64,000 bases of DNA. Origin: a virus. The notes beneath the pieces are model-generated. The model was not told the origin of the DNA. It did not search any database and saw only the letters and a program-made list of their open reading frames with translations. Below, one piece after another: positions 1,610 through 3,287 of this stretch. The translations under genes and the position numbers were made by a program. Position 1 is the stretch's first letter; the number at the start of each line of letters is the position of its first letter. The stretch lies in the IMG/VR virus record IMGVR_UViG_3300021181_000006, positions 1 to 64,000 of that record. One strand, written 5' to 3'.

Positions 1610-1985
1610 GGGCCTGATTAGCTTCGACGGGAATTGTGAAATAAGAGTGAGCCGTGTCGTAGAGCTTGTGGCTACGTAAAAAACAAGCAAAAAATGTAAA
1701 TGACGATTCCGTCACTTACGCATCTGCCCGTCTCGCTGCCTAACCGCAGCCTGGCTCACAGGTGTCCAATCTGCAACATACGGGTGCTTCTACCGTTGCA
1801 GATCATCAGAAGATCGTCGGCCTAGGAACTGGAAAACCTAGGGACTAAATTCCATCTCGGTCCAGCACAATGGGTACCGTAAACTCGAAATGCTAGGTGA
1901 TCATTCCAAATAATGATATATACACGGTAGAGCACACTATAGATCGATTCTCGGACCTGGGTTGCGAAACCCAGCAGGTCCACCA
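1610..1985 (+). ncRNA. ssrA: tmRNA (transfer-messenger RNA)
   Basis: 5' GGGCCTG pairs with 3' CAGGTCC-ACCA including G3-U wobble; GATTAGCTTCGACGGG D-like region; T-arm CTGGG/CCCAG; internal tag frame ending LAA-stop. Confidence 0.95.
1696..1743 (+). other. tmRNA tag reading frame VNDDSVTYASARLAA* (resume codon could instead be GCA at 1687)
   Basis: Translation of 1696-1743; ND start and LAA end typical of proteolysis tags. Confidence 0.8.
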
Positions 1986-2027
1986 TTTGTAATTTCAGTG
2001 GCACGTGTGTACCTACTAGCAATAGTA

Positions 2028-2164
2028 GGAGTTCCTCTGATGAGTCTGCTTAAACTCCAGACGAAACCGATCAGTGAAGACGAGTGTTCTCTTCACATAG
2101 GTGGGCGTACTATTACAGAATTAACACACTCTGTACCTGTAACCTGCCTGATTGGTAAGGAAAT
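2028..2164 (+). ncRNA. Type I hammerhead ribozyme with 73-nt insertion in stem III; predicted cleavage after A2157
   Basis: CTGATGA 2037-2043; stem II GTCTG/CAGAC; GAAA 2063-2066; stem III ACCGATCAG 2066-2074 / CTGATTGGT 2148-2156; GUA triplet; stem I TTCCT 2032-2036 / AGGAA 2158-2162. Confidence 0.85.
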
Positions 2165-3250
2165 GCTTGGATCAGACATCGGAAGTCGGTGCCAGGCCTA
2201 GACCACGTGCTTACCGTGTGTTCTAGTAGTCTATTGTCAGTCCAACCATAGGGAGCACTAGCGGTGACAGATGATTCCTGTTCGTTGCTGCTCTCAGCCC
2301 TCATAGACGGCAAATAAGTTTTTAATGACCAGAACTGAATGGTCAGAGCGAACTAACGGTAAGACGTATTTTTGAAGGTATTTTGGAGGACCACGGAGCC
2401 ATCCAAAGGCCCTCCTAGAGAGGTAGCCTAACTCTGTGGTGAAGACCACGACTCGGGGTGCAAAGCCAGGGATACCTTCTTTCTTTCAAACCATCAACCA
2501 AAGGAAGACCATGTTCAGAAAAGGACTCTACGACATAGAATTCGTTTTTGGTCTTGTGAAAGCTCCAGAAGAGAGAGTATTGGTTGATGGAGATATCATG
2601 AATACCAAATCGTTACGCATGCGTACTTTTGCTTATAAAGGCATTCATTGCGTGAATTGTGAAAGGTATGGCAGGGGTTTCGTTAAAGAGAAACATCACG
2701 CTTCGGATCAGACGTATCATTTTGCCCTCTATCACTGGTATAACGATGATAGAGAGCCTATGATACTGATGACAAAAGATCATATACTACCCATTTCAAA
2801 AGGTGGTCGTGATTTTCTTGGTAACATGCAACCCATGTGTGCGGTGTGTAATTTTACCAAAGCAGGAGATCCTCTTCCTGTTGGTGTGAAGTTCACTCCC
2901 AATGAACTATTTCTTCGTATTCCGCTATCCAGTCCCACTATGACCTCTTAGGTGAGCTGCGTTCATGCTCTTTGCAGCATGAAGCCAGTAGCGAGATCCT
3001 AAGTGCGTCGGGATGATAGACGTGAAGAATGGATAGACAGACACTCAGGTAAGTCCAAGCGCGCTCTTGCTAAGGGTGAAATGCTGAGCTGAATGGGGTG
3101 CGAGTCGCAATGCCCGACACTGTTCGGGGATAGGAGCACGCGCCATGCAAAGATTCCTGCATCGTTAGCCGGACTTAGAGCCGGCCACTCTGATTGACTT
3201 CAGATATACATGAAGCAATCTATAGAGCAATAATATACACGAAAGAGTCC
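2158..3250 (+). ncRNA. Candidate large structured ncRNA (about 650 nt excluding the HNH ORF)
   Basis: ORF-poor and helix-dense flanks at 2158-2510 and 2952-3250; pseudoknot 2210-2217/2356-2363; long-range helices 2414-2424/2943-2952 and 3050-3056/3171-3177. Confidence 0.55.
2511..2951 (+). CDS. HNH endonuclease (McrA-like, Zn-binding), 146 aa from ATG 2511
   Basis: CVNC...TKDHILPISKGG...NMQPMCAVCNFTK motif; AAGGAAG RBS at 2501-2507. Confidence 0.88.
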   Translation: MFRKGLYDIEFVFGLVKAPEERVLVDGDIMNTKSLRMRTFAYKGIHCVNCERYGRGFVKEKHHASDQTYHFALYHWYNDDREPMILMTKDHILPISKGGRDFLGNMQPMCAVCNFTKAGDPLPVGVKFTPNELFLRIPLSSPTMTS

Positions 3251-3287
3251 ATGCAGTATCCTACGAAAGTAGGGTACTGCATTTTTT
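3251..3287 (+). terminator. Rho-independent terminator
   Basis: ATGCAGTATCCTAC-GAAA-GTAGGGTACTGCAT followed by a T run. Confidence 0.85.

Follow-up and report, generated by a model that had tools for sequence, protein, structure and literature searches.

A probable type I hammerhead ribozyme with an enlarged stem III between the tmRNA and HNH endonuclease genes of a soil phage

The locus described here belongs to a 184,466-bp IMG/VR virus record from soil, with an estimated completeness of 94%, and the window that we analysed is the first 64 kb of that record. The RNA polymerase of this phage is a beta-beta' fusion of 2028 aa, from a family that is widespread on phage contigs of 100-200 kb. 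As summarized in Table 1, a tmRNA gene, a hammerhead motif, a gene for an HNH endonuclease and a strong intrinsic terminator all lie on the same strand.

Table 1. Coordinates of the features at the tmRNA-hammerhead-HNH locus, in window positions
Feature	Position	Strand	Description and evidence
Phage tmRNA gene	1610-1985	+	RF00023, 101.4 bits against a 47-bit cut-off, full-length model match
Hairpin in tmRNA trailer	2012-2029	+	7 bp, CCUACUA/UAGUAGG, loop GCAA; directly 5' of stem I; sequence and folds
Complete type I hammerhead motif	2032-2162	+	
Stem I, 5' strand	2032-2036	+	UUCCU; pairs with 2158-2162, 5 bp, open
Core, C3-A9	2037-2043	+	CUGAUGA; sequence, also matched by partial Rfam Hammerhead_3/_1 matches and by models R1 and R2
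Stem II	2044-2048/2058-2062	+	GUCUG/CAGAC, 5 bp, G-C closed, 9-nt loop CUUAAACUC
Core, G12 A13 A14	2063-2065	+	GAA; sequence
Stem III, 5' strand	2066-2074	+	ACCGAUCAG, from A15.1; pairs with 2148-2156, 9 bp, one G-U
Insert in stem III loop	2075-2147	+	73 nt; folds
Stem III, 3' strand, and H17	2148-2157	+	CUGAUUGGU; U16.1 = 2156, then H17 = A2157
Stem I, 3' strand	2158-2162	+	AGGAA; predicted first bases of the 5'-OH product
Structured untranslated RNA	2158-2510	+	HNH leader or separate RNA of ~200 nt; fold of 1986-2515, z = -2.36; RNA contig 2173-2363 in one run
HNH endonuclease gene	2511-2951	+	146 aa, ATG 2511, ribosome-binding site AGGA 5 nt upstream; Pfam HNH/HNH_5, PHROG HNH endonuclease
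Strong intrinsic terminator	3251-3287	+	14-bp stem, then UUUUU; terminator scan; RNA contigs stop at 3158-3265

The tmRNA that an earlier, sequence-only reading of this DNA had named as the neighbor of the ribozyme is real. The match to RF00023 takes in the tRNA-like domain, the pseudoknots and the tag reading frame, and from the sequence itself we read an acceptor stem GGGCCUG/CAGGUCC with a G3-U70 pair, an encoded CCACCA 3' end and a tag frame that ends in ...ARLAA-stop. ARAGORN did not detect the tmRNA at 1610-1985. The spacing of about 50 nt given in that reading is borne out as well, since stem I of the hammerhead begins 46 nt, and its core 51 nt, after the end of the gene. In strain L099, which is ~1% diverged and is also present in RNA run X5, 7 of the 8 tmRNA changes with respect to the window fall in 1728-1781, a stretch of 54 nt in the tag/pseudoknot region, and they include a 3-base substitution and a 1-base insertion at 1755-1758. 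Another sequence, L097:214-800 (Ga0184615_10164343), has a tmRNA 3' end whose unusual T-loop, GGGUUGCGAAACCC, is that of the tmRNA in the window; there, ~540 nt of GC-rich, hairpin-dense non-coding sequence, dissimilar to the window, separate the tmRNA 3' end from the next ORF.

A terminator scan found none between 1985 and 2032, and the hairpin in the trailer has no U-tract and is therefore no intrinsic terminator. The first terminator after the tmRNA is the one at 3251-3287, which is likely to be the end of the transcription unit. With no terminator between tmRNA and ribozyme, and the first strong one only beyond the HNH gene, we infer that transcription most likely continues through the ribozyme, the leader and the HNH gene. 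RNA from four soil metatranscriptomes was available as assembled contigs only, whose depths cannot rank genes and whose gaps and ends are uninformative on cleavage. Contigs cover positions 1628-1948 of the tmRNA in three runs, and further contigs span 2173-2363, 2507-3158 and about 2877-3265. Both flanks of the hammerhead are thus present in soil RNA libraries. The interval 1949-2172 has no contig and one contig starts at 2173, 15 nt past the predicted cut; as assembled contigs do not show RNA ends, neither observation speaks for or against cleavage.

The homologues of the HNH endonuclease that we found (44-45% identity) are free-standing genes in tightly packed gene rows and have no RNA flanks. 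A group I intron carrying the HNH gene was considered and rejected: nothing interrupts the tmRNA before its CCA end, and Intron_gpI gave no match even with E values of up to 10 allowed. A further structured stretch, 2923-3240, separates the HNH stop codon from the terminator. It is represented in RNA contigs of all four metatranscriptomes and has no Rfam family match; it may be a stable 3' RNA.

The motif at 2032-2162 has the topology of a type I hammerhead, with stem I open, stem II a hairpin and stem III closed by the folded 73-nt insert. All core nucleotides are present, as had been claimed: C3 U4 G5 A6 N7 G8 A9 (C2037-A2043), G12 A13 A14 (G2063-A2065), the pair A15.1-U16.1 (A2066-U2156) and H17 (A2157). 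Stems I, II and III comprise 5, 5 and 9 bp, and there is no mispair at 10.1-11.1, 1.1-2.1 or 15.1-16.1, the core-adjacent pairs G2044-C2062, A2158-U2036 and A2066-U2156 all being Watson-Crick. The separation of the stem III strands is exactly the 73 nt that the sequence-only reading had given. The cleavage site is GUA, and the predicted scissile bond, 2157/2158, follows from hammerhead rules. Perreault et al. 2011 accept candidates that show full core identity and no core-adjacent mispair (PMC3088659), and the 2032-2162 candidate passes under those rules. Every sequence and structure criterion that could be tested agrees with its identification as a hammerhead. We also considered a type III reading, prompted by a weak Rfam match and with the hairpin at 2012-2029 as stem I; it was rejected, as it leaves seven bases between the hairpin and C3 with no upstream partner.

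The proposed tertiary contact is less secure than the core. CUC at 2055-2057 in loop II is indeed complementary to GAG at 2029-2031, but three pairs are not significant and G2029 also takes part in the hairpin 2012-2029. An alternative loop II contact would pair GAGUU with AACUC and cost 2 bp of stem I. Beyond the 3-bp pairing, nothing is evident in the way of a contact between stem I and loop II for fast cleavage.

Standard searches miss this element, as the sequence-only reading had anticipated for short-pattern searches. With RF00163 it scores 12.6 bits against a cut-off of 34 bits, and with RF00008 17.6 bits against 48.5 bits, both below the gathering threshold, which is a database criterion and not a defining property of the ribozyme class; RF02276 gave no match. 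Since the partial Rfam alignments stop at 2072-2078, the insert is the cause of the missed detection. Hammerheads with long folded inserts thus escape Rfam, and published counts must therefore miss some such examples.

We then compared the candidate with phage hammerheads that share part of its sequence. A pattern search of IMG/VR, in which core and stem II were fixed as in the candidate and the loop was left free, returned 27 viral contigs, where ~0.1 would be expected by chance, and 25 of the 27 are complete type I hammerheads with a stem I of 4-6 bp, a stem III of 3-14 bp and loops of 2-37 nt. Many of them lie in gene leaders just 5' of the ribosome-binding site, some directly behind promoter-like sequence. 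From these sequences, which are phage type I hammerheads independent of the candidate, we built a covariance model, R2, leaving the candidate out. With filters off, all of its 60 positions (1-60) align to 2032-2162, with 85 nt of stem III passed over and no non-canonical pair, and the alignment gives 30.8 bits, a score that is partly circular because the members were chosen for sharing the candidate's stem II; the columns for stem I, stem III and the cleavage site are independent of that selection. The next-best match in the window reaches 15.3 bits. Under default filters R2 returned 25.3 bits for the candidate, with a wrong, compact 3' end. The hammerhead motif is real, and most likely it is a functional ribozyme of type I whose stem III domain is unusually large; its class is well known, and the element is not of a new kind. 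A second model, R1, found second hammerheads on several small viral contigs that share this stem II, at L234:3307-3367 (-), L217:5091-5151 (+) and L231:2455-2519 (+); these pairs have the clustered arrangement described for prophages.

Relatives of the arrangement were sought from several directions. BLAST of 1986-2500 against GenBank phages found no homologue, nor did searches of IMG/VR with the exact core pattern and with the tmRNA T-arm pattern; in JGI metagenomes the T-arm pattern gave 3 matches, none of them related downstream. With the 170-aa ORF as anchor, no relatives turned up beyond the phage's own strain. Among 50 records of primase-helicase relatives, 2 have tmRNA genes, neither with a hammerhead in its 1.5-kb flanks. 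Relatives of the fused beta-beta' RNA polymerase (49 IMG/VR records) include 11 with a tmRNA over the cut-off; none of the 11 has an Rfam ribozyme or a match to our hammerhead descriptor within 1.5 kb, and in these phages the tmRNA is followed by terminators, tRNAs or genes. The closest polymerase relatives (58-64% identity) have neither tmRNA nor hammerhead at the syntenic site, a site really tested by locus L103 alone, because the upstream flank of the other three of the four syntenic loci is only 289-712 nt long. Related loci totalling 2.7 Mb were also searched by nhmmer, with the tmRNA leader, the trailer and the two untranslated regions as queries, and gave no match. The IMG/VR pattern "TCCACCA, 25-55 nt, hammerhead core" had 20 matches, most of them chance, with 0 after a tmRNA and 1 after a tRNA.

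Strain L099 differs from the window at a single position in 1986-2435, C2081U, which falls in the predicted bulge of the first insert hairpin, and core and stems are unchanged between the two strains. With no homologue and one uninformative strain difference, the candidate, unlike published hammerhead families, is therefore left with no known relatives and no conservation or covariation support. The tmRNA-hammerhead-HNH block looks lineage-specific, because relatives that have the tmRNA, the RNA polymerase or HNH homologues do not have it, and a full-text literature search found no paper with a hammerhead after a phage tmRNA. Confined to one lineage and with no comparative support, the candidate is of limited general importance.

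The minimum-energy fold of the insert has two hairpins, 2075-2095 and 2101-2147, much as described before: the helix of the first is 2075-2080/2090-2095, and that of the second, at 2114-2119/2130-2135, is slightly longer than had been noted and is enclosed by 2101-2105/2143-2147. The stability of this fold is not above that of shuffled sequences (z = -0.67), an Rfam search of the insert yielded no aptamer or riboswitch match, and the insert has no relatives; the suggestion that it is a regulatory domain thus finds no support and is conjecture. For the ribozyme as a whole, stems II and III are recovered in the minimum-energy fold of 2020-2175, and seven pairs of stem III have a pair probability of 0.98. 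A competing hairpin, 2032-2065, buries the core by means of helices 2036-2039/2058-2061 (UCUG/CAGA), 2042-2045/2054-2057 (GAGU/ACUC) and 2032-2034/2063-2065 (UUC/GAA). In terms of secondary structure without tertiary contacts, the minimum-energy fold is at -48.8 kcal/mol and the enforced hammerhead fold at -43.6 kcal/mol, a gap of 5.2 kcal/mol; the ensemble pair probabilities, computed in the same way, are 0.12-0.21 for stem I and 0.33 for stem II.

These folds bear on the possibility that the element is a relic or a crippled hammerhead, once compact and possibly acquired with the HNH cassette, which the 73-nt insertion disrupted or the alternative hairpin keeps trapped and which would cleave poorly or not at all and have no role. 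The more stable alternative fold speaks for such a remnant, as do an insert that folds no better than shuffles, the occurrence in a single lineage, and the fact that the largest stem III loop among the 25 comparable phage hammerheads is 37 nt. We nonetheless think it unlikely. Core and three helices are intact, the 9-bp stem III should hold the junction, and core and stems are identical in both strains. Furthermore, the insert forms hairpins, the condition on which hammerhead surveys accept long insertions (PMC10085705).

To estimate how often a motif of this kind arises by chance, we used a descriptor that allows stem III loops of up to 120 nt. Applied to both strands of the 184-kb genome, it matched at 2032-2162 and nowhere else. 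Across 300 Markov-2 random genomes of the same size it matched once when stems of 4/4/4 bp or more were required and never at 5/7/5 bp. Both strands of 5.4 Mb of real phage sequence, taken without selection, contain CUGAUGA followed by a stem II of 5 bp or more and GAAA a single time, at the candidate site itself. For random anchors in the same 5.4 Mb, the probability that stem III reaches 9 bp or more, with U16.1 and H17 in place, and that stem I reaches 5 bp or more is 8.7e-5. The chance expectation per genome is about 10^-5 to 10^-6, or ~6e-6 by the real-sequence calibration. Over the ~250,000 windows screened, a match of such quality is expected ~0.3 times, so that the statistics alone are insufficient and context counts. 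Perreault et al. warn that consensus matches occur by chance in large databases (PMC3088659), and that warning, the number expected over the whole screen and the lack of conservation evidence are the points in favor of a chance resemblance within an untranslated spacer. Such an origin is nevertheless improbable in our judgement, and more so than a relic: the expectation for this one genome is minute, 25 of the 27 viral contigs with this core and stem II pattern have complete hammerheads, and the context fits, in that the motif is in the non-coding DNA of a phage, precedes a gene and shares its strand with a transcribed RNA gene. Another descriptor match, in L163 (stems 4/6/4), lies inside Clp-like coding sequence, has no Rfam support and was treated as chance.

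The enlarged stem III domain and the core-burying hairpin 2032-2065 could in principle form a natural switch. Cleavage would then depend on a factor from phage or host, or on timing during transcription, and the tmRNA precursor would accordingly stay joined to the homing-endonuclease RNA or be cut from it. We consider this very doubtful; if true, it would be a naturally regulated hammerhead linked to phage take-over of ribosome rescue. ACUC in loop II could pair instead with GAG or GAGU of the 5' flank, and in the modeled structures these pairing choices may amount to a bistable arrangement. That the stretch encodes a 53-aa protein (ATG 2040-TAG 2201, AGGAG 8 nt upstream), with the RNA motif incidental, is scarcely credible: the frame is open, was called by the gene caller of one assembly and has C2081T as a synonymous change (GAC to GAT), but its product is an orphan that forms a single-member cluster and matches nothing in Pfam, in PHROG or, by tblastn, in phages. 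Its codon usage scores 0.054, less than the 5th percentile of 0.16 for 53-codon windows in the genome's own genes, its ATG is supplied by the CUGAUGA core, chance often leaves a frame of 53 codons open, and the gene caller of another assembly made no call.

Our preferred reading, which we hold to be probable, is that 2032-2162 is a genuine type I hammerhead, with stem III enlarged to a three-way junction by the two-hairpin insert, and that it cuts a tmRNA read-through transcript and gives the downstream RNA a defined 5'-OH end. The transcript would run from the tmRNA through the ribozyme and the structured leader into the HNH gene. Once stems I, II and III had formed, the 2'-OH of A2157 would attack the 2157/2158 phosphodiester. 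The upstream product would be a tmRNA precursor with a 2',3'-cyclic phosphate end and a trailer of 172 nt, which would be retained because the type I topology keeps nearly the whole ribozyme on the 5' product. Because this trailer remains, the cut would not form the tmRNA 3' end. The earlier statement that cleavage releases pre-tmRNA therefore holds only loosely: the predicted cut lies 172 nt past the CCA end, and the mature 3' end is neither made nor approached. Host nucleases would still have to make the CCA end.

The companion claim, that the cut creates the 5'-OH end of the next RNA, fits the predicted chemistry well, since the 3' product of cleavage at 2157/2158 would carry it. This product would start at A2158 and consist of a 353-nt structured leader followed by the HNH message. 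The benefit of the genuine hammerhead, as we envisage it, would be that an abundant tmRNA processed by RNases is uncoupled from the RNA that follows it, and that the latter gains a defined 5' end. The candidate is placed between RNAs of very different fate, an abundant tmRNA matured by RNases and the message of a homing endonuclease, and it may bear on the question of why phages put ribozymes in clusters of RNA genes.

Hammerheads are common in phages and, to our knowledge, their roles are mostly unknown. The type I hammerheads of phages and prophages (PMC3088659; RF00163, clan CL00010) have in common with the candidate an identical core, the G10.1-C11.1 closure, C15.2-G16.2 and a GUH site. 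Like it, they have an open 5-bp stem I and a 5-bp hairpin as stem II and are intergenic, upstream of a gene; the GUCUG/CAGAC stem II of the candidate is that of the 27 IMG/VR contigs. What sets the candidate apart is the two-hairpin insert of 73 nt in stem III, where comparable examples have loops of 2-37 nt, its sub-threshold score in Rfam and its position behind a tmRNA gene.

Two other groups of ribozymes resemble the candidate in placement or in architecture. Theta (HDV-like) ribozymes adjoin phage tRNA genes, and Kienbeck et al. 2024 (PMC10879173) propose that they free RNA processing from its dependence on host RNases; they are postulated to process tRNA 3' trailers (PMC10879173). They are self-cleaving phage ribozymes placed, like the candidate, directly after a gene for a tRNA-type RNA, and they are the published analogue of a phage that provides an RNA-processing cut of its own. 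In contrast, the candidate is of another class, and its predicted cut, 172 nt downstream, would define where the next RNA begins and not where the tmRNA ends. Discontinuous hammerheads with long inserts, such as those of the rodent Clec2 3'UTR, have inserts of hundreds of nucleotides and reside in eukaryotic mRNAs. As is predicted for the candidate, a functional core is assembled from strands separated by a long intervening sequence. The Clec2 inserts are in another stem; the candidate, a phage RNA, has its insert in stem III, as a compact and structured domain.

A parallel in placement comes from another phage record, IMGVR_UViG_3300040801_000310, in which a compact type I hammerhead (L260:3815-4080, minus strand) lies 54 nt after tRNA-Ala in an array of 19 tRNAs. 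Its predicted cut, after A3907, is exactly at the ARAGORN 5' end (3906) of tRNA-Tyr, and the 3' strand of its stem I is the start of the acceptor stem of that tRNA. Judged from this arrangement, the ribozyme would need no RNase P to generate the 5' end of the mature tRNA, which would be a 5'-OH. Both elements are type I hammerheads a few tens of nucleotides past a CCA-encoding tRNA-type gene, and both would fix the start of the RNA that comes next. They differ in that stem III of the tRNA-associated ribozyme is compact (4 bp with a 3-nt loop) and its cut coincides with a mature tRNA 5' end, whereas no tRNA or known RNA starts at 2158. A different setting is seen in a family of ~17 IMG/VR contigs of 4-10 kb, all with an identical 49-nt type I hammerhead (e.g. 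L218:2783-2880, minus strand). This hammerhead stands immediately behind a promoter-like site, TTGACA-17-TATACT, and before a ribosome-binding site, and its predicted cut would trim only the first ~45 nt of the transcript and leave an mRNA with a 5'-OH end.
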